Of a stretch of 41,317 bases of DNA, positions 9,151 to 35,193 are shown in pieces (position 1 is the first letter of the stretch; every line of letters begins with the position of its first letter). The notes under the pieces were generated by a model. The model saw only the letters and a list, made by a program, of their open reading frames with translations, was not told the DNA's origin and ran no database searches. Made by a program: the position numbers and the translations under genes. The stretch is from sequence record MG252615.1, one strand, 5' to 3'. The DNA is from Escherichia phage vB_EcoS_HSE2.

Positions 9151-9179
9151 ACTATAATAGCTTACTATTCAGGTGTCAA
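9151..9179 (-). promoter_or_regulatory. Sigma70-type early promoter with palindromic operator in spacer
   Basis: TTGACA, 17-nt spacer, TATAGT on minus strand; spacer has AATAGC-TT-ACTATT (9156..9169). Confidence 0.6.
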
Positions 9180-9183
9180 CACT

Positions 9184-9675
9184 TTATTTGCCGTGGTTTT
9201 CGTGGAAACCGTACTTAACTTCTGCAGCCTTTCTCGCGGCTATTGCGTCGTCGATAGTTTCGAAACGTCCGAGATGAATTACTCGCTTCTTAACTTTTAT
9301 CTCAGCTCGCCATTTTCCGCGGCTTTTATCAAACCTAACACCCGTCACACCGGACGTGTTGTTGCGAGCTAAAGATAAATTACGGCTGTTCTCTTTTCGG
9401 GTTGTTTTCCTCAAATTAGAAAGAAGATTATTTTCTCGATTATGGTCGATATGGTCTATCTCCTCTCCGGGTTGAAGTTTATTTTCAGGCTTCATCATAT
9501 CCCATATAATTCTATGCGCCTGAAATGTCCTTCCGTGTAAACGGACGCACACATAACCCCAATTACGAACAGCAGCAACTTCGCTCCCGGCGGGCGCGCG
9601 ATTGCTGTTAGTTACGCGCCAATATAACTTACCAGTGTTGGTGTCATACCTAAAATAATCTCCCCATTTAATCAT
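9184..9675 (-). CDS. HNH homing endonuclease with C-terminal AP2 DNA-binding domain
   Basis: HNH motif IDHIDHNRENN...N; AP2-like GVTGVRFDKSRGKWRAEIKV...HLGRFETIDDAIAARKAAEVKYG; ATGA overlap with upstream gene. Confidence 0.75.
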   Translation of the reverse strand: MIKWGDYFRYDTNTGKLYWRVTNSNRAPAGSEVAAVRNWGYVCVRLHGRTFQAHRIIWDMMKPENKLQPGEEIDHIDHNRENNLLSNLRKTTRKENSRNLSLARNNTSGVTGVRFDKSRGKWRAEIKVKKRVIHLGRFETIDDAIAARKAAEVKYGFHENHGK

Positions 9676-10928
9676 TCCAAATCCTCCTCTGTTACCCCTT
9701 TCCACTCAGGTCGTTTGTCGTCTGCTGCGGCGATTGTCGGTCGACCAGGATTACGGATAATGAATTCCGTCAGTTCTTCTTCTGGGATAACTTTCACGGC
9801 TGCTGTAGGGGTAATGATTGACTTAGCCATAACTTTATCTCCAAATTTAGCAATAACTGCCTCTGGGTCCGCCCAGGAGCGATTGCCACCCCGCCCTTCA
9901 ACCAGTTTGTACCCCGGCACTTTCTTACCGGAATGCAACGCAGTAGCCATAGCTTTTTCAACCTTGTCGATGTGCTGGCGCAACAACGGCAACTTCTCAT
10001 ACTCAGCTACTAGTTGCTCCGGCGTAAGCTCAAGTGCAAAGTCGTCCTCCAGTTCTTCCGCCAGCACAGAATTAACCGTCTTTGTACGCGCGGCGCATTG
10101 TTCTGAGAACCGACACCACTGACAACCATCGACCGACGGTTTGAAATCCGACGCTTTAAGGTTCTTCTTACCGCGGAAATAAGCATCAAGCGCTAACAGC
10201 GCGCGTTTCTGTGCGAACTTAGCGAACAGTTCCAGACCTTCAACCGAGATGTCCCACTCCGACGCACCGCCCGCGTATGGCTGGAAGATGACCAGACGAA
10301 CCACGGTGATGTTATAACGTCTCTTGAGTCGGCGATAAACACCAAGAGCGTAAAGCATGAGCTGCTTGTTTTCTTTCGCTTCGACACGATGCCGTCCAGT
10401 TTTCAGGTCGCCGATAATGAGCATGTGCTCGTCGGAGTTAGCCAGTTCCCGCACGGCAACAAGGTCAGCCGTTCCGAACGTCTCAACGCCTTCGTACCCT
10501 GGGTGCAATACCTCAGTAAGATTGACGCGCATTTCCAGCTTGGCGTATGTCGCTACATCGATAATCGCTTTGCAGTAGTCGGTGTACTTTCGCACCTGTT
10601 CAATCATGTCCGCCGTAATCAGTACCGCACCTTTCATCGGGCTGATAAGCGCCTTAATCTGGCCTTTACCCTCATCCAGCACGTAAGTACCGACTTCGCG
10701 CTCTAACGGCAACGCAGTTCCGCGAATATAAGCGTTGAGGTGGACCTCCGCTATTGTGTGGCACGCGGTCCCTGTAACGGCGGATTTACCAGACGTGTTG
10801 GGGATATCTTTTTCGCATGCCAGTGATGCAGCACAACTCAGCCACTTTTTAGCACCTGACGGCGACAGTAAGGCGTGCACGTCATTATTGCCGCCGCGTT
10901 CTTTTAAAATCATGCCCTGTTCTCCCAC
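9672..10928 (-). CDS. PD-(D/E)XK nuclease, Cas4/RecB-like, with 4-Cys cluster
   Basis: DLKTGRH...E.K...QLMLYALG nuclease motifs; N-terminal Cys plus C-terminal CQWCRFSEQC. Confidence 0.6.
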   Translation of the reverse strand: MGEQGMILKERGGNNDVHALLSPSGAKKWLSCAASLACEKDIPNTSGKSAVTGTACHTIAEVHLNAYIRGTALPLEREVGTYVLDEGKGQIKALISPMKGAVLITADMIEQVRKYTDYCKAIIDVATYAKLEMRVNLTEVLHPGYEGVETFGTADLVAVRELANSDEHMLIIGDLKTGRHRVEAKENKQLMLYALGVYRRLKRRYNITVVRLVIFQPYAGGASEWDISVEGLELFAKFAQKRALLALDAYFRGKKNLKASDFKPSVDGCQWCRFSEQCAARTKTVNSVLAEELEDDFALELTPEQLVAEYEKLPLLRQHIDKVEKAMATALHSGKKVPGYKLVEGRGGNRSWADPEAVIAKFGDKVMAKSIITPTAAVKVIPEEELTEFIIRNPGRPTIAAADDKRPEWKGVTEEDLE

Positions 10929-11757: not shown

Positions 11758-11786
11758 ACTATAATAGCGAACTATTCACATGTCAA
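11758..11786 (-). promoter_or_regulatory. Sigma70-type early promoter with palindromic operator in spacer
   Basis: TTGACA, 17-nt spacer, TATAGT; spacer has AATAGC-GA-ACTATT (11763..11776). Confidence 0.6.
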
Positions 11787-15222: not shown

Positions 15223-15251
15223 TTGCACACCCCAACATAATAGGTTACTAT
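15223..15251 (+). promoter_or_regulatory. Middle-class promoter (conserved 30-nt family) with operator palindrome
   Basis: TTGCAC-ACCCCAACATAATAGGT-TACTAT; palindrome AATAGG-TT-ACTATT (15239..15252). Confidence 0.6.
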
Positions 15252-15370
15252 TCACTTATCGAGGCGAGGCAGGGAGCCAACCTTTAATAAGGTCAGTAGC
15301 GGCGACGAGCATACGAAGAGTCGATAAGCCCGGTAAGCAGAACCTAAATTAACTAAGAGAGAAAAGCTGG

Positions 15371-16583: not shown

Positions 16584-16612
16584 TTGCACACTAAGATAGA
16601 ATAGGCTACTAT
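16584..16612 (+). promoter_or_regulatory. Middle-class promoter with operator palindrome
   Basis: TTGCAC, 17-nt spacer, TACTAT; AATAGG-CT-ACTATT (16600..16613). Confidence 0.6.
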
Positions 16613-16643
16613 TCATTTACACAAACGAGAAGAGAGACAGAAG

Positions 16644-24716: not shown

Positions 24717-25793
24717 ATGCTATTAACTTTAGCGCCACAGGGTTTATCTATGAGCTTACTTACATCCCTAATCAGCCACCAGATTTGGCTGCAACGCACC
24801 GCATCCGGCGAAGTGAAAGACCTCGCACCGTTCGTCCAGGAGATGCGGGACGAAATAAAACGGCAGGTGCTGTTATTTGGCGACGACGGGCGAAGCACCG
24901 CGCGACTGAATAAACTGTTACGCGACCTCGAAGAAGCACTGGCAGGACTTACCGGTGACTGGCAAACAAAACTGACAGAAGACCTTAAGGAACTGGTGGC
25001 ATATGAGGCTGAGTGGAACGTAAAGACGCTGACGGCTAACGTTAACGCGGAATTTGTTACGCCTACCGCAGAACAGGTGTGGGCCGCTGCCGAGTTTCAA
25101 CCCTTATCGTTAAGCGACAAACCTGTCGACTTCACCAAGCTGATGTCTGGCTGGGGTGAAACCGAAGTCGCGCGCCTTGTAACCGGCGTTAAGATGGGCT
25201 TCGTACAAGGCCAAACCACACGGCAGATTGTTAAGAATGTCGTAGGCGCTGGTGGGCTGGCGGACATTTCAGAACGCAACGCGGCTACAGTAATCCGCAC
25301 TGCGCTGTCCCACGTATCCAACGAAGCCCGCAACGAGACGTACCGCCAGAACGACGACATCATCGAGAAATACGAATGGGTGTCAACTCTGGACAGCCGT
25401 ACAAGCACGATTTGCAGAGCCAGGGACGGGATGACGTGGGAAATTGGTAAAGGGCCAATGCCCCCCGCCCATCCGAATTGTCGAAGTACCACTGCACCAG
25501 TAATCAGTTCCGAGTTCGACTTCCTCGATAAAGGCGCAAAACGCGCGGCTAAGGGCGCAGAAGGCGGTACTCAGGTAAGCGCAGACACCACTTACTACGA
25601 GTTCCTGAAACAACAACCAGCATGGTTTCAGGATGAAGCACTCGGCCCTGTTCGCGGTAAGATTTTCCGTAACAGCGGTATATCGCCGGAAGAGTTTCGC
25701 GTAATATCTGTAGATGGTTTCGGGAATCCACTGACACTTAAGCAGATGGCGGAACTCGATAAACGTGTTGCTGAATATCTGAAAGGGGATTAA
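24717..25793 (+). CDS. Head morphogenesis protein (Mu F / SPP1 gp7-like)
   Basis: Conserved DSRTS..C...HPNCR segment typical of this family; start may be the internal ATG at 24750. Confidence 0.65.
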   Translation: MLLTLAPQGLSMSLLTSLISHQIWLQRTASGEVKDLAPFVQEMRDEIKRQVLLFGDDGRSTARLNKLLRDLEEALAGLTGDWQTKLTEDLKELVAYEAEWNVKTLTANVNAEFVTPTAEQVWAAAEFQPLSLSDKPVDFTKLMSGWGETEVARLVTGVKMGFVQGQTTRQIVKNVVGAGGLADISERNAATVIRTALSHVSNEARNETYRQNDDIIEKYEWVSTLDSRTSTICRARDGMTWEIGKGPMPPAHPNCRSTTAPVISSEFDFLDKGAKRAAKGAEGGTQVSADTTYYEFLKQQPAWFQDEALGPVRGKIFRNSGISPEEFRVISVDGFGNPLTLKQMAELDKRVAEYLKGD

Positions 25794-26254
25794 TGATGGG
25801 CTTTTTCAAAGTAACTGATGTACCGTCACGCCGCGTAGTCCAGTACGCCCGCGTGTCTGGTTCTGGCGAGAACGTGGTGTTTATTGAAGATGAAAGTGTA
25901 CTGGGATCACCTGTAGACGATATGCCGTTTGCAGACAAGACCGGTATCGCGCTACCAGCGGCGGGTATGCTTTATGAGATTCCGTATCTGGCGGACGCTG
26001 GCGACGTGTATTTCTCTGTGCAGCCGCAGGGCGCTGAACTGGCGGACGGCAGCGCAACCATCACTGTAGACGTTAAGGCTGGCAAAGCACCATATGCGTT
26101 GACCTGGTACAAAGACGGGAAGGAAGTGGTAAACGCCCCGGAAGAGGCTCTGTCTCTGACGGTTAACGCGGTGGGTGAATACTTCGTTAAAGTCACCGAT
26201 GCCGATGGGGTAGAGGCCGTCAGTAAAGCGGCGAAGGTTACTAAGCCGGAATGA
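25793..26254 (+). CDS. Structural protein with C-terminal Ig-like domain
   Basis: C-terminal YALTWYKDGKEV...EYFVKVTDADG resembles bacterial Ig-like folds. Confidence 0.45.
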   Translation: MMGFFKVTDVPSRRVVQYARVSGSGENVVFIEDESVLGSPVDDMPFADKTGIALPAAGMLYEIPYLADAGDVYFSVQPQGAELADGSATITVDVKAGKAPYALTWYKDGKEVVNAPEEALSLTVNAVGEYFVKVTDADGVEAVSKAAKVTKPE

Positions 26255-26255
26255 T

Positions 26256-26285
26256 AAAAAGCCCCGCTATGGGGCTTTATTTTTA
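26256..26285. terminator. Bidirectional intrinsic terminator
   Basis: Stem AAAAGCCCC/GGGGCTTTT, loop GCTAT, A-run before and T-run after. Confidence 0.7.
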
Positions 26286-26354
26286 TATGAACATCGCGGT
26301 GATAGCCGCAGCCGATACCCACAAAACAAAATAAAACATCACACTATTTGTCAT
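26283..26354 (-). CDS. Hydrophobic peptide (23 aa), third gene of lipoprotein cassette
   Basis: Verified by hand: MTNSVMFYFVLWVSAAAITAMFI; ATGA overlap with lipoprotein stop. Confidence 0.25.
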   Translation of the reverse strand: MTNSVMFYFVLWVSAAAITAMFI

Positions 26355-26695
26355 TTGCATTTCTCGTCGTATGTTTGTTGTAACTGCGACAGACGATTAC
26401 CGGCTGTCATCTCGTCCATAGAAGGCCCGGCGCCCGTGTCCATAAAGAACAGCGGAACAATCAGGAATGCGCCTGTAACACCGAGTACAACGTTAGTACC
26501 TATTTGCTTATTAACACGGTGCGTAGCGTTGGCTTGAGCTTGTTTTGTCGTGGCGATTCTCGATAGTAACTGATTACATGTTGCCGTTGTATCCCCTGCC
26601 TGATAAACCTGTAAAGCCGGGTCTGGCAACGACCTTACGCAACCACTCAAACAAACGGCTACAACACCCGCTACTGCTAATTTAATATATTTCAT
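26351..26695 (-). CDS. Lipoprotein (114 aa) in a moron cassette; candidate superinfection-exclusion / receptor-masking factor
   Basis: Signal peptide with lipobox L-S-G-C; opposite strand to flanking head genes; own promoter and terminator. Confidence 0.55.
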   Translation of the reverse strand: MKYIKLAVAGVVAVCLSGCVRSLPDPALQVYQAGDTTATCNQLLSRIATTKQAQANATHRVNKQIGTNVVLGVTGAFLIVPLFFMDTGAGPSMDEMTAGNRLSQLQQTYDEKCK

Positions 26696-26793
26696 AGTTC
26701 ACCATTACCCGTGTCAATTTCACCAATACCACTACAAGCCCAAAGAAACATCACCGCATCAACTGCAATTACTACTGAAATAACGACTAACAT
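26692..26793 (-). CDS. Small transmembrane peptide (33 aa), first gene of lipoprotein cassette
   Basis: Verified by hand: MLVVISVVIAVDAVMFLWACSGIGEIDTGNGEL; GAGGAGG Shine-Dalgarno; ATGA overlap. Confidence 0.3.
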   Translation of the reverse strand: MLVVISVVIAVDAVMFLWACSGIGEIDTGNGEL

Positions 26794-26820
26794 GACGGCC
26801 TCCTCGGTTCGATAGAATGA

Positions 26821-26849
26821 ATAGTACCCTATTATATTGGGGTGCGCAA
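26821..26849 (-). promoter_or_regulatory. Middle-class promoter driving the lipoprotein cassette
   Basis: Minus strand TTGCGC-ACCCCAATATAATAGGG-TACTAT; 30-nt core identical to the promoter at 35165..35193. Confidence 0.6.
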
Positions 26850-26915
26850 ACTATTTGTTTATGTATTCCAGTTATTCCACCAAATTGTAAATATTGGAAT
26901 AAACTATTCGAATAG

Positions 26916-26944
26916 TTGACTTTTCACCAAAAATGTGCTAAGCT
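26916..26944 (+). promoter_or_regulatory. Sigma70-type promoter preceded by 16-bp palindrome AACTATTCGAATAGTT
   Basis: TTGACT, 17 nt, TAAGCT; palindrome at 26902..26917. Confidence 0.45.
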
Positions 26945-27150
26945 CCACCTGAGCTTGTGAAGTATGAACAAGCGACCGCGGCGTGGCAGGTAACGGAGCC
27001 GGACGTTAAGTCCGAGTGTAGTTACGCTGACGCGTTCGGAAGGGCCATACTCTATTGCTTGTGTAAAAAGTAACTGGTTTACTGAGATTACGCCGTTTCT
27101 ATGTTTAAATGATAAGGACTAGCGCCCCGCTTTATGGCGGGGCTTTACTT
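26945..27150 (+). ncRNA. Candidate small RNA or structured leader (about 200 nt) between promoter and terminator-like hairpin
   Basis: No ORF longer than 9 codons; starts after the 26916..26944 promoter and ends at hairpin 27124..27143 plus U-rich tail. Confidence 0.3.
27121..27150 (+). terminator. Terminator-like hairpin just upstream of the spanin RBS
   Basis: Stem GCCCCGC/GCGGGGC, loop TTTATG, then TTTACTTAT. Confidence 0.45.
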
Positions 27151-27167
27151 ATCGAGAAAGGAGAAAC

Positions 27168-27554
27168 ATGAATCTTAAAGCAACTGTCGTAGCGGGAGCA
27201 TGTTTCATCATCCTGGCTTACGCACACGGCATCTACCAGTACCGCAGCGGCTGGAACGAAGGCCGGGCGAATCTCGTTTCGCAGCAACAGCAGGAAGCAC
27301 AGGCTGAGTTAGCGAAGAAAACACAACGGCAGCAGCAGGACGAATCAAAGGCCGCAGCCGCTGGCAACGAAGGCAAGACGAAATCAGAGGTGATTACCCG
27401 TGAAGTCGTTAAGTACATTAAAACACCTGGCCGTAGCGTGTGCACTTTTGACGATGCTCGCGTCCTGCTCAAGTCCCGCGCCGTCGCAAACGCCAATTCC
27501 ATCCCCGGATACGACGATGATGCAGCCGCCGTGCAAACTGGCGCCGCCAAGTAG
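27168..27554 (+). CDS. i-spanin (Rz-like)
   Basis: N-terminal TM segment followed by Gln/Ala-rich coiled-coil periplasmic region; embedded lipoprotein ORF in +1 frame. Confidence 0.6.
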   Translation: MNLKATVVAGACFIILAYAHGIYQYRSGWNEGRANLVSQQQQEAQAELAKKTQRQQQDESKAAAAGNEGKTKSEVITREVVKYIKTPGRSVCTFDDARVLLKSRAVANANSIPGYDDDAAAVQTGAAK

Positions 27555-27663
27555 CGACGCGGACGAGGATTTGGCTATCGACGTTCAGAACGCCGAATGT
27601 GTGCGGCAACTGAGGCTGAAAGTGTTCATGCTGCAGGATTACGTGAGGAATATTCTGGAATAG
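27400..27663 (+). CDS. o-spanin (Rz1-like outer-membrane lipoprotein), overlapping Rz
   Basis: Lipobox L-A-S-C followed by Pro-rich mature region; starts inside Rz in another frame and extends beyond its stop. Confidence 0.55.
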   Translation: MKSLSTLKHLAVACALLTMLASCSSPAPSQTPIPSPDTTMMQPPCKLAPPSSDADEDLAIDVQNAECVRQLRLKVFMLQDYVRNILE

Positions 27664-27742
27664 TTGCCTTGCATGTTGGAATAATTTATTCTTGACATGT
27701 AAATCCGGGTGGCCCGGGTTCCAACGTCCAGGGGACATACTG

Positions 27743-28369
27743 ATGAGCGAAGAAGTGAAAGACGAAACTATCGAACAACAAGAGACTAAGACCACGTTTA
27801 CCAAAGAAGAAGTTGACGCGCTGGTATCCGGTCTTAAAGCTAACAACGAGAAACTCTTGTCTGAAAAGAAAGCTGCTGCCGCTGCCGCTAAAGAAGCCGC
27901 AGATGCGAAGCTGAAAGCCGAACAGGAACGCGCAAAACAGAACGGCGAACTTGAGGCATTCGAGAAAACGTTGCGCAGTCAGTATGAGCCAGTACTCGCC
28001 GAGAAAGACGGTAAGATTAGCAAAATGGCTGAGCGTATCCTCGGCGCAGAACGTAAATCAGTTATCAGCCAGTTGTCTGGCATGTTGATTGATGAGAGCG
28101 CAGCAGATATCATCGCTATGATGGTCAAGACCGAATTTGACGGCGATGACGTTGTGACCAAGTTCACAGGTGCAGACGGTAATGTCATCACCACCGACGC
28201 AGAGCAATTTAAAAAGTATCTGCGTGAGCACAAAGCATTTTCGCATCTGATTAAAGCAGATGCAGCAACCGGCGGCGGGGCTTCCGGTAACAAGAATTCT
28301 ACTGGCGGGGCCGGTGGTGCGGACGTAATCCAGCAAAAACTTAACGCCAAATACGGCAAACGAGGATAA
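27743..28369 (+). CDS. Scaffolding protein
   Basis: Ala/Lys/Glu-rich helical protein immediately upstream of major capsid gene; AGGGGA Shine-Dalgarno. Confidence 0.55.
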   Translation: MSEEVKDETIEQQETKTTFTKEEVDALVSGLKANNEKLLSEKKAAAAAAKEAADAKLKAEQERAKQNGELEAFEKTLRSQYEPVLAEKDGKISKMAERILGAERKSVISQLSGMLIDESAADIIAMMVKTEFDGDDVVTKFTGADGNVITTDAEQFKKYLREHKAFSHLIKADAATGGGASGNKNSTGGAGGADVIQQKLNAKYGKRG

Positions 28370-33306: not shown

Positions 33307-33777
33307 CTACTCATGGTTTTCATGGAAACCGTATTTACTCTCGGCGGCTTTACGCGCAGCAACCGCTACATCAAAATCGTCGTAAAGCCCTAAATGCACT
33401 TGTTTGTAGTTAACTTTTATAAACGCGCGCCACTTACCCGCGGCTTTGTGGAAACTTACGCCTGTAGCCCCGGATTTATTTATCTTTCGCATAGTTTTAT
33501 TTTTACTGTTCCCTGTATTGTCGGTGGCGCGTAGATTTTCTATTCTATTGTCTAGCCTGTTATGGTTTATGTGGTCTATTTGAGTTTTCCTGTCTAAGTT
33601 GCATTTATTATAAAGACACCATGCTATGCGGTGGACATACACTGTTTTACCACCCATACCGCAGCACAGATAACCTCTTACACCAACCGTACCAACCTCA
33701 GCACCAGTAGATAACCTGGTAACCCTCCCAGTCTCAGGGCAGTATTTAAATTGTTTTGAAACATCAAGATATTTCAT
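33307..33777 (-). CDS. HNH homing endonuclease with AP2 domain (paralog of 9184..9675)
   Basis: HNH motif IDHINHNRLDNRIEN; AP2-like GATGVSFHKAAGKWRAFIKV...AARKAAESKYGFHENHE. Confidence 0.75.
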   Translation of the reverse strand: MKYLDVSKQFKYCPETGRVTRLSTGAEVGTVGVRGYLCCGMGGKTVYVHRIAWCLYNKCNLDRKTQIDHINHNRLDNRIENLRATDNTGNSKNKTMRKINKSGATGVSFHKAAGKWRAFIKVNYKQVHLGLYDDFDVAVAARKAAESKYGFHENHE

Positions 33778-34904
33778 CTTAGCATCTCCGGTGAGATTGA
33801 AAGCCTACCTACTTCCCCGAACTCTGAACTATAGGTTATGACATTAGCGGACCTCTTAGACATCCACCCGCCGCGAGAAGCATATGCATCTTTCGCCGCG
33901 AGAGTGCGATGCTGCTCCACTACCATATTCCTACTTTCTACGATCTTTTGGTGGTGGAGATGCCCAACATGTGCATAACTGTACTCGCTTTCGCCGAATG
34001 CTTTTCTGAACTTAGCTATCATAATGGGTTCGACCACCTCAAACCGGCATTTATGCCCGTGTGTAAAGAACAGAGTCGTTTTGCCGTGTTGCACCATCTT
34101 GTAAACATCCGGCGACGTATCGACGAACACACGCGGCTCATTGTCATATAGCGTGCTGAACATCTCAGCTAACCAAATCATTCCGCTTTCGTCGTGGTTA
34201 CCTTGAACGATTAAAAGTTTTACTGTGTGATGCTTAACCAGCGCCATATCGACAACACGACGCACCATACGAATCATGTAGCGAACTAGTTTCTGATAGC
34301 GAGTATCGGCGTCTAACACATGACGCGACTCAGGGGTAACGGCATCAAGACTATCGAAGTGCGCGAAGTCTCCTAGCAGATTAATAACTCCTGTTCCCGC
34401 GTCCGGTGCTTTCTGAAACGCCGCGTCGAACCATCGAGAGAACAGGTCTTCTGCAATCTTCATGTCCCAGTCGTCGCCGCTCTCGTCTGCCCATGCAAGC
34501 ATACCGAGATGGAAATCAGACACAGTGTAAAGATTGAGAAGTTTATCGTCGCGTTTGGCGCGAGTCGCTTTAACAGGCGCAACAGGTGTAATCTCTGACT
34601 TCATGCCTTCAATTACGGCTTTCATCAACTCGACCTGACGTTCAGCATCGGTGTCAGTCTTAACCCATTGCAACTTAGTGTTGCCGAACTCGTCCACCAG
34701 GGACGACGTGCCTTTAATCTTGTAGCCGTCCGGCACAAGGTGACTAACGTCGCGCCCGTGGCCTACACCTTTCTTAGCCAGCTTCGCTTTACGGATACGA
34801 ATAACGCGGTCTGAGATGCCGTATTTACGGGCGATATCAATAATCTTCATCCCGGCGTTCAATTCTTCCTGTAACTGTTCGTCGGTTATTTTCTTCTGGG
34901 CCAT
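33774..34904 (-). CDS. Calcineurin-like metallophosphoesterase with N-terminal HTH domain
   Basis: Phosphoesterase motifs DFHLG, GDFAHFD, GNHDE, THGH, GHLHH in canonical order; N-terminal IIDIARKYGISDRVIRIRKAKL helix-turn-helix; GAGGAAG Shine-Dalgarno. Confidence 0.65.
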   Translation of the reverse strand: MAQKKITDEQLQEELNAGMKIIDIARKYGISDRVIRIRKAKLAKKGVGHGRDVSHLVPDGYKIKGTSSLVDEFGNTKLQWVKTDTDAERQVELMKAVIEGMKSEITPVAPVKATRAKRDDKLLNLYTVSDFHLGMLAWADESGDDWDMKIAEDLFSRWFDAAFQKAPDAGTGVINLLGDFAHFDSLDAVTPESRHVLDADTRYQKLVRYMIRMVRRVVDMALVKHHTVKLLIVQGNHDESGMIWLAEMFSTLYDNEPRVFVDTSPDVYKMVQHGKTTLFFTHGHKCRFEVVEPIMIAKFRKAFGESEYSYAHVGHLHHQKIVESRNMVVEQHRTLAAKDAYASRGGWMSKRSANVITYSSEFGEVGRLSISPEMLR

Positions 34905-34942
34905 GCTTACTTCCTCGTGTTTAGGATTTGTCTTATAGTAGC

Positions 34943-35149
34943 CTACTTCTCTTTCACGTTCGAGTTGCAAGCCCAGATTAAAATAAATACCCACGGCAGC
35001 AGAACCCAGCCAAGAAACAGGTTAGCCATGAATATAGCTAACTTCGCTTTATGGTTACGGAAGTACGCAACCAGGAAAGGTGCGAAATAAGCGAGCAGTG
35101 CAAACAGAATTAAGGAAACTGGTAAACTGGACATTTTAAACCCCTTCAT
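34943..35149 (-). CDS. Superinfection-immunity-like small membrane protein (Imm family-like)
   Basis: Two TM segments with R.H..KLAIF..NLFLGW...PW...LIWA, matching my recollection of the Imm-superinfection family consensus. Confidence 0.55.
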   Translation of the reverse strand: MKGFKMSSLPVSLILFALLAYFAPFLVAYFRNHKAKLAIFMANLFLGWVLLPWVFILIWACNSNVKEK

Positions 35150-35164
35150 TGTTGGTGTAAGTGA

Positions 35165-35193
35165 ATAGTACCCTATTATATTGGGGTGTGCAA
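35165..35193 (-). promoter_or_regulatory. Middle-class promoter driving the Imm/phosphoesterase/HNH cassette
   Basis: Minus strand TTGCAC-ACCCCAATATAATAGGG-TACTAT; transcription start only about 9 nt before the Imm ATG. Confidence 0.6.

Follow-up and report, generated by a model that had tools for sequence, protein, structure and literature searches.

A mobile lipoprotein cassette in an accessory slot of the lytic Escherichia phage vB_EcoS_HSE2, with a possible role in superinfection exclusion

The genome of Escherichia phage vB_EcoS_HSE2 (MG252615.1; the window analysed here is the whole stretch of 41,317 nucleotides, nt) carries at 26283-26849, on the minus strand and inside the head module, a small cassette that encodes a 114-amino-acid (aa) prolipoprotein and two very short peptides. 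Comparison with related genomes shows that the region is a promoter-cargo-terminator unit which is mobile and occupies a conserved accessory slot in the genome of this lytic Kagunavirus. As to function, we propose that the lipoprotein acts in superinfection exclusion from the periplasmic side, blocking an incoming phage after adsorption and alongside the Imm protein of the phage. The case for this is circumstantial and comes from the positions of its homologs, and we give it a probability of about 0.45. Taking this block and the inactivation of an outer-membrane receptor together, superinfection exclusion of one kind or the other seems somewhat better than an even bet.

The cassette consists of the following elements, promoter and terminator being assigned on sequence evidence.

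26818-26849, minus strand: promoter core TTGCGCACCCCAATATAATAGGGTACTATTCA, with -35 TTGCGC, a spacer of 17 nt and -10 TACTAT, or alternatively a perfect TATAAT -10
26794-26817, minus strand: 5' leader; a strong Shine-Dalgarno sequence in it, GAGGAGG, lies 5 nt upstream of the ATG of the 33-aa gene
26692-26793, minus strand: 33-aa peptide, hydrophobic in its N-terminal half, with an acidic tail that ends in GNGEL
26351-26695, minus strand: 114-aa prolipoprotein (phrog_13472), signal peptide 1-18, lipobox LSGC
26283-26354, minus strand: 23-aa peptide MTNSVMFYFVLWVSAAAITAMFI, uncharged and hydrophobic (25 aa from an alternative ATG at 26360)
26258-26278, both strands: bidirectional intrinsic terminator, a hairpin with T-runs on each side, ending the leftward cassette and a rightward Hoc-like gene

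A preliminary description of this DNA had proposed three overlapping minus-strand open reading frames (ORFs) between head genes, a lipobox in the longest of them and a bidirectional terminator at their end. All of this is borne out. The 33-aa/114-aa and 114-aa/23-aa junctions are both 4-nt ATGA overlaps, the lipobox occupies residues 16-19 of the 114-aa ORF, and the terminator hairpin has T-runs on both strands and a predicted RNA fold of -17.5 kcal/mol (z = -3.05). In GenBank records the three genes are labelled hypothetical; from their sequences, all three look like real genes.

The source genome is that of a Kagunavirus, a siphovirus of the Guernseyvirinae, and the 1.9 kb spanning the cassette are 92-98% identical to the Escherichia/Shigella phages phiSD1, BUCT823, SZH-1, fBC-Eco01 and Golestan. 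Kagunaviruses have been described as small lytic siphoviruses that depend on surface glycans (PMC11990801; PMC9825357). Genes follow one another in the order portal, head morphogenesis, Hoc-like decoration, minus-strand cassette, Rz/Rz1 spanins, scaffold and major capsid protein. The cassette has a G+C content of 44.6%, against 54-56% in the flanking genes, and a third-position G+C of 0.435 against 0.565-0.594. It is complete in 10 of 299 related records. Upstream of its promoter lies the rest of the slot, which in some records holds an annotated plus-strand ORF of 37-38 aa at 26957-27073.

26850-27167, no strand: conserved non-coding slot backbone, with a G+C-rich hairpin at 27124-27143

This backbone (about 320 nt, up to Rz) is nearly invariant among kagunaviruses regardless of cargo, and it may hold a promoter for the spanin, scaffold and capsid genes that lie downstream of the bidirectional terminator. 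An Rfam search of 25500-28000 gave no match. Promoter core and terminator are kept in every variant of the slot, while the cargo between them differs widely. Six cargo arrangements were found, among them the following.

Bas70: a 67-aa acidic protein
EM1: a Dam-like methylase
XY2: a 173-aa protein annotated as sliding clamp (phrog_3007; best PHROG match 'RusA-like')
K1H: the 33-aa gene only

The 173-aa cargo occurs in two different slots, in XY2 between Hoc and spanin (L039:783-1304, minus strand) and in fBC-Eco01 between portal and head morphogenesis (L002:329-850, minus strand). The two proteins are 92% identical, their promoter core, leader and terminator are identical, and the DNA homology begins at the core and ends at the terminator. 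Moreover, the lipoprotein leader of L011, a metagenomic kagunavirus contig, is closer to the leader of the Imm operon than to the cassette leader of vB_EcoS_HSE2. The cargo variants, this switch of slot, the L011 leader and the divergent G+C thus indicate that units are exchanged both within and between slots.

The closest described analogue of these units are the PeSL cassettes of T4-type phages, in which a conserved early promoter and a stem-loop terminator shuffle ORFs (PMC2839356, PMC4122927). In both cases a fixed promoter and terminator surround variable small ORFs, one slot can hold different cargo and one cargo can occupy different slots. The kagunavirus units, however, belong to a Guernseyvirinae siphovirus, use a quasi-palindromic motif of their own that may also be an operator, and form antisense islands in the late structural module, so that we would regard them as analogues and not as members of the PeSL class. 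The view of the preliminary description that the region resembles a moron also holds, since the unit has its own promoter and terminator, is present or absent among relatives at the same junction, and has a lower G+C than its flanks. It differs from the lambdoid morons in that the host phage is lytic, which makes expression from a repressed prophage inapplicable (PMC9825357). Slot promoter and terminator, besides, persist when the cargo changes, and the promoter belongs to the regulatory class of the phage itself.

The patchy distribution and the foreign base composition could be those of selfish or decaying cargo that does nothing for the phage. We regard this as extremely improbable, given that the ribosome-binding sites are intact, the genes are translationally coupled, ten phage records, with carriers from four continents, agree in the lipoprotein at 99-100% identity, and both the lipoprotein and the 23-aa ORF bear the marks of strong purifying selection in comparison with the L011 allele. 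Between the two alleles the lipoprotein retains 82% protein identity with a proportion of synonymous differences (pS) of 0.61, at which synonymous sites are saturated, and a ratio of non-synonymous to synonymous change (dN/dS) of 0.11. The 23-aa ORF keeps its frame, length and stop; its 22 differences in 72 nt comprise 13.7 synonymous and 8.3 non-synonymous ones, where 21% synonymous would be expected under neutrality (binomial p = 2e-5). The 23-aa peptide is restricted to kagunavirus alleles and occurs solely alongside the lipoprotein, and no conserved downstream micro-peptide was found at the distant homolog loci, where one was looked for. We infer that it is a lineage-specific membrane partner of the lipoprotein.

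The 33-aa gene has a separate history. It is absent from L011, and in the slot of K1H (L024:830-960) a diverged homolog of the same length (MMVAISFVLLVNLGLFVWAVSGVEDADSGNGEL) is the sole gene, with a strong ribosome-binding site and the terminator directly after it. This suggests that the 33-aa micro-gene is a real conserved gene and the older resident of the slot. As the 33-aa gene stands alone in K1H, and the lipoprotein/23-aa pair stands without it in L011, the cassette is made of two modules; the single three-ORF cassette of the preliminary description is retained as regards coupling but not as one evolutionary unit. The second module (409 nt, 26283-26691) is bounded precisely by the stop codon of the 33-aa gene on one side and by the terminator on the other, and its ribosome-binding region is the end of the 33-aa gene. 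The 33-aa peptide was also considered as a second lipoprotein (LWAC) and rejected, because the cysteine is a valine in the K1H homolog and the N-terminus is not basic.

The promoter connects the cassette with a second operon, located inside the tail module, which encodes an Imm_superinfect protein, then an SbcD-like exonuclease and then an HNH endonuclease.

35162-35193, minus strand: paralogous promoter core, upstream of the Imm, exonuclease and HNH operon
34943-35149, minus strand: Imm_superinfect protein of 68 aa, first gene of the operon (PF14373, E = 9.3e-13)

Both the presence of an Imm cassette and the sharing of its promoter had been noticed before, and both stand. The extent of the identity given then, 30 nt, needs correction: the exact repeat is 27 nt (26818-26844 = 35162-35188), and the shared core TTGCRCACCCCAATATAATAGGGTACTATTCA, 32 nt with one R position, is identical at 31 of 32 positions (26818-26849, 35162-35193), where no such repeat is expected by chance. 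Nor is the promoter confined to these two cassettes. Allowing up to 3 mismatches, the genome contains six related sites, against none expected.

15234-15254, plus strand: related class-2 promoter site, preceded by cTTGCACACCCC and facing a series of small rightward genes without known function
16595-16615, plus strand: related class-2 promoter site, likewise facing a series of small rightward genes without known function
9151-9171 and 11758-11778, plus strand: related sites facing replication genes, with the opposite-strand reading TTGACA-17-TATAGT
26818-26838 and 35162-35182, minus strand: related sites facing the lipoprotein cassette and the Imm operon, respectively

The sites at 15234, 16595, 26818 and 35162 have the upstream sequence cTTGCRCAC in common and can be read as TTGCAC-17-TACTAT or with a TATAAT-like -10. 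A quasi-palindrome AATAG-N4-CTATT, present in the promoter core of the cassette, recurs in all six sites, inside sigma-70-like promoters, and may be the operator for a phage regulator. The same motif was detected at seven sites by PHIRE in the study of fBC-Eco01 (PMC9825357). Its labelling there as a promoter for a phage RNA polymerase was rejected, as the motif is readable as sigma-70-like; no RNA polymerase gene appeared among the genes examined or in the annotations of relatives, some large ORFs of the genome being left unclassified. Non-structural operons follow all six sites, and the late structural operon follows none. As the genes served by this promoter class are non-structural, transcription of the cassette is predicted to be early or middle, and antisense to the late head transcript.

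The exonuclease of the Imm operon corresponds to a longest ORF of 406 aa (33774-34994, minus strand) that has a GTG start and overlaps the Imm gene by 52 nt. Its PHROG match begins at residue 33, and thus the true start is probably an internal methionine near 34904.

The lipoprotein begins with MKYIKLAVAGVVAVCLSGC, which comprises a basic K-rich N-terminus, a hydrophobic core and the lipobox L16-S17-G18-C19. According to the +2 rule (Val, no Asp) it should be sorted to the outer membrane. It matches phrog_13472, a family of unknown function, over residues 3-114 (E = 1.2e-44), with all the invariant residues of the family present. Relatives numbered 20 in a first search and 1047 in a profile search, and an exhaustive search raised the number to 1464 clusters (50% identity), 713 with values below 1e-10. 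None of the family members carries an informative name or a Pfam domain, except for an occasional C-terminal SHOCT domain. A profile search of PDB sequences gave no match, and the Foldseek hits from PDB and BFVD, all at E > 1, were generic alpha-hairpins (AcrA/EmrA hairpin, WXG100), which we do not use as evidence. We found no paper on the lipoprotein or its family, and no kagunavirus transcriptome, in the literature.

Among 105 diverse members the invariant residues are C19 (the site of lipid attachment), D35, C40, N68, L71, G72, G75, P81, F84, D86, R101, L105 and C113. Residues 68-86 form a hydrophobic motif with the consensus NVALGVTGxFLIVPLFFMD. AlphaFold2, run with the family alignment, predicts helices at 40-72 and 93-112 with a local confidence (pLDDT) of 75-87 there. 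When coevolution is calculated as mutual information with average product correction (MI-APC) on 242 non-redundant members, the anti-diagonal i+j = 148-157 holds 14 of the 30 top-scoring pairs (hypergeometric p = 6e-8); the invariant cysteines C40 and C113 add up to 153, and N68 and D86 to 154. We infer from this an antiparallel helical hairpin centred near residue 76, its base predicted to be closed by a C40-C113 disulfide and its tip to consist of about nine hydrophobic residues per arm. The invariant cysteine pair, the acidic flank that follows the tip, and a crude insertion energy of +2.4 kcal/mol for the tip (-1.1 for the 23-aa peptide) favour a model in which both arms are periplasmic and the tip dips into one leaflet or a partner protein without spanning the inner membrane. 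A stop-transfer transmembrane helix is disfavoured by the same three features and by the anti-diagonal coevolution.

A lipid anchor, an internal hydrophobic segment and nearby small transmembrane peptides give the cassette a superficial likeness to a unimolecular spanin, and its neighbours on the right are the spanin genes.

27168-27554 and 27400-27663: Rz (phrog_2536) and Rz1 (phrog_5672) spanin genes, right neighbours of the cassette
25793-26254: Hoc-like decoration gene, left neighbour of the cassette

The lipoprotein could therefore be an additional spanin of this kind, or a regulator of Rz/Rz1 or of holin timing. A unimolecular spanin has an N-terminal lipoprotein signal and a C-terminal transmembrane segment with a periplasm-spanning domain between them, and it replaces Rz/Rz1. 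Here the hydrophobic segment (67-85) is internal; it lies between the invariant cysteines of the coevolving hairpin, and a conserved helix comes after it. Its distance from the lipid anchor is only about 45 residues, and a complete two-component spanin is already present next door. The cassette is, furthermore, divergent from the spanin genes, has a promoter of the non-structural class and is absent from most kagunaviruses, and none of the homolog contexts examined is a lysis cassette. A role in lysis is accordingly very unlikely.

Evidence about function comes mainly from the places where homologs of the lipoprotein are found.

P22-like prophages (Citrobacter, Kluyvera and others) and viral contigs: directly after the ejection-protein genes 7-20-16, with mnt/arc/ant and the tailspike gene following
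Second podovirus type: flanked by the genes of a large virion protein and the tailspike
Lambdoid prophage of Alcaligenes: with the N antiterminator on one side and cI/cro on the other
Other viral contigs: next to repressor or integrase genes
Seleniivibrio integrative element: after TraH-TraG, adjoining defence-type genes
T7-like phages of Aeromonas: in a group of small early genes that precede the primase gene
Nitrosomonadales, a sponge-metagenome contig and one other metagenomic contig: in ordinary chromosomal neighbourhoods
Rhizobium, Sinorhizobium and Agrobacterium replicons (L045-L047, L049): between tpsB (ShlB/FhaC/HecB) and a giant hemagglutinin-repeat tpsA

In P22, sieA occupies the first of these positions, with gene 16 on one side and mnt/arc/gene 9 on the other; the correspondence applies to the homologs and not to the cassette itself. 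All the SieA-carrying prophages that Leavitt et al. examined have the gene at the same position, and SieA is present in only 22 of 66 P22-like phages (PMC10883804). In the lipoprotein-carrying prophages no SieA is found at that position: the neighbours have no match to phrog_7745, which P22 SieA matches at 9e-109. Judging from these contexts, the family is an old bacterial envelope lipoprotein that has repeatedly been picked up by mobile elements, and in phages it lands where exclusion and host-interaction genes are kept. In Seleniivibrio, the homolog (L008:6001-6405, plus strand) is divergently paired, right after TraG, with the gene of a 62-aa single-pass membrane protein (L008:5662-5850, minus strand), a layout that resembles a two-gene entry-exclusion locus.

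It is this occupation of the sieA position and of other mobile-element accessory slots by the homologs that makes exclusion plausible. We hypothesize that transcription of the cassette falls in the early or middle period of infection, antisense to the late head genes, and that the lipoprotein would be exported and lipid-modified at Cys19. Its invariant hydrophobic tip could then be buried in one leaflet of a membrane or in a conserved partner there, and the 23-aa transmembrane peptide, whose translation is coupled to that of the lipoprotein, would serve as an accessory partner specific to the lineage. Placed in this way, the lipoprotein would block the DNA-delivery path of the incoming phage after adsorption, in parallel with the co-regulated Imm.

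An alternative is that the phage has captured an envelope lipoprotein of bacteria whose benefit to the infected cell is something other than exclusion, for example protection against colicins, contact-dependent toxins or serum, as given by Bor or TraT, or stabilisation of the envelope during infection. The family is mostly bacterial and includes members in housekeeping contexts and in two-partner-secretion operons, and a hydrophobic tip that never varies suggests that its target in the host is conserved too. For a phage that is lytic and has a short cycle, however, resistance to serum or colicins would be of little use, and recurrence in the sieA slot and in immunity and early regions is most simply explained by conflict between phages. 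We consider this alternative unlikely.

The preliminary description had assigned exclusion to the masking of the receptor by a lipoprotein of the Cor or Llp kind. Phage T5 Llp and phi80/N15 Cor are lipoproteins that inactivate FhuA. The cassette product resembles them as a small phage lipoprotein without a Lol-avoidance residue, probably early, acting from the periplasmic side and expected to protect the infected cell and the progeny. If it worked in the same manner, it would be bound to the periplasmic face of the terminal receptor or of another beta-barrel and would block adsorption or triggering, while also sparing progeny from loss on infected cells and debris. The lipoprotein signal, co-regulation with Imm and the fact that the terminal receptor of kagunaviruses is unknown (PMC11990801) leave room for this. 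The rhizobial homologs, which adjoin an Omp85-type TpsB barrel, hint at an affinity for outer-membrane barrels, and for this reason an Llp-like action on an outer-membrane protein stays alive as an alternative.

Four reasons nevertheless lead us to prefer a block after adsorption to receptor masking. Phages with different tailspikes carry the lipoprotein in near-identical form, the tailspike of vB_EcoS_HSE2 being common to only two of the seven other distinct carriers. Its gene is part of the head module and distant from the receptor-binding locus, with which it neither is linked nor co-varies. Its homologs serve phages with unrelated receptors. Finally, the residues that never vary are those of the hydrophobic tip and the cysteine pair, across phyla as distant as Deferribacterota and Pseudomonadota. 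Kinship with Cor is not supported either: the only similarity, to phrog_1119, has E = 0.29 and covers residues 1-37, that is, the signal peptide; there is none to Llp, and a helical protein with a hydrophobic tip, a cysteine pair and a family that crosses phyla differs from both. Exclusion as such thus survives from the preliminary description as plausible, receptor masking does not, and we would call an Llp/Cor-like mechanism distinctly unlikely.

With P22 SieA, an inner-membrane protein that blocks the gp16/gp20 DNA conduit (PMC10883804), the lipoprotein would have in common a block after adsorption, and its homologs occupy the same genomic position in P22-like prophages devoid of SieA. The proteins themselves are unrelated: SieA has 164 aa, several membrane passes and a cytoplasmic FxRYPxEAxxFNK motif (PMC10883804), whereas the cassette product is a lipoprotein with one hydrophobic hairpin and has no match to phrog_7745. 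Another parallel exists in phage T4, whose Imm and Sp form an early membrane and periplasmic exclusion pair made together. In vB_EcoS_HSE2, also a virulent phage, an Imm-family membrane protein and a periplasm-facing protein depend on one promoter class. The lipoprotein has no similarity to Sp, however, and nothing points to inhibition of a tail lysozyme. It also recalls the TraT/TrbK-type exclusion lipoproteins of conjugative elements and BcpO, which like the family members at translocation loci are small predicted outer-membrane lipoproteins encoded beside DNA- or protein-translocation machinery. The cassette lipoprotein gave no match to the Pfam TraT family. BcpO, from Burkholderia two-partner-secretion loci (PMC3415462), has 73-74 aa and another gene order, and its length and gene order make kinship with it unlikely.

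Several observations weigh against a function in exclusion or against parts of the proposed mechanism. The lipoprotein has no homology to any characterised exclusion protein, and searches of Pfam, NCBIfam and PADLOC with it and the two peptides yielded sub-threshold noise only. Many members of the family reside in ordinary chromosomal contexts, and in Rhizobiaceae they are found inside two-partner-secretion operons, which argues that the ancestral function was not phage exclusion. These rhizobial proteins have about 155 aa, and their arrangement is kept across dozens of Rhizobium plasmids. The order in Rhizobium and Sinorhizobium is IalB-like protein, TpsB, lipoprotein, a 184-aa hypothetical protein and TpsA, and in Agrobacterium the IalB-like and 184-aa genes are missing; this context may be a clue to the ancestral role. 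In addition, promoter timing is deduced from the genes served, the structure model is of moderate confidence (mean pLDDT 68, lowest at the hydrophobic tip), and the hydrophobic segment could be a true transmembrane helix.

A more general proposal concerns the family as a whole. The pan-bacterial family might be a disulfide-closed periplasmic alpha-hairpin, its hydrophobic tip invariant, that virulent phages, prophages, conjugative elements and two-partner-secretion loci have recruited as a general 'entry-exclusion' device. Acting through a conserved host component and no single receptor, it would prevent phage DNA conduits, conjugative DNA and contact-dependent toxins from crossing the periplasm or the inner membrane. 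We regard this as speculative and unlikely.

A phage accessory envelope lipoprotein with its own promoter is of a kind already familiar. What appears to be new is the protein family and the hairpin on which it is built, the repeated appearance of its members in the sieA slot, the existence of slots with a shared quasi-palindromic promoter, and the shuffling of cargo between them. If the role in exclusion is correct, a structurally new and very widespread family would join the few known exclusion proteins of Gram-negative hosts, and the occupant of the sieA slot would be explained for many of the approximately two thirds of P22-like phages without SieA. The invariant tip would then point to a conserved envelope step needed for the delivery of phage DNA. 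The promoter-terminator slots, for their part, show accessory-gene exchange among small lytic siphoviruses and offer payloads natural, insulated places of insertion in kagunaviruses, a group already in use for phage engineering.

Two further observations concern the wider genome. A circular sequence of 44,086 bp from a human blood isolate of E. coli, deposited as 'plasmid' pC16EC0033-2 (CP088689.1, L044), appears to be a kagunavirus genome at full phage length, with the same gene order and an identical lipoprotein in the 5.3 kb inspected. It could represent a carrier state, pseudolysogeny or contamination. In vB_EcoS_HSE2 itself there are two HNH endonuclease genes, both assigned to phrog_99, one in the replication region (9184-9705, minus strand) and the other in the Imm operon inside the tail module (33307-33777, minus strand).

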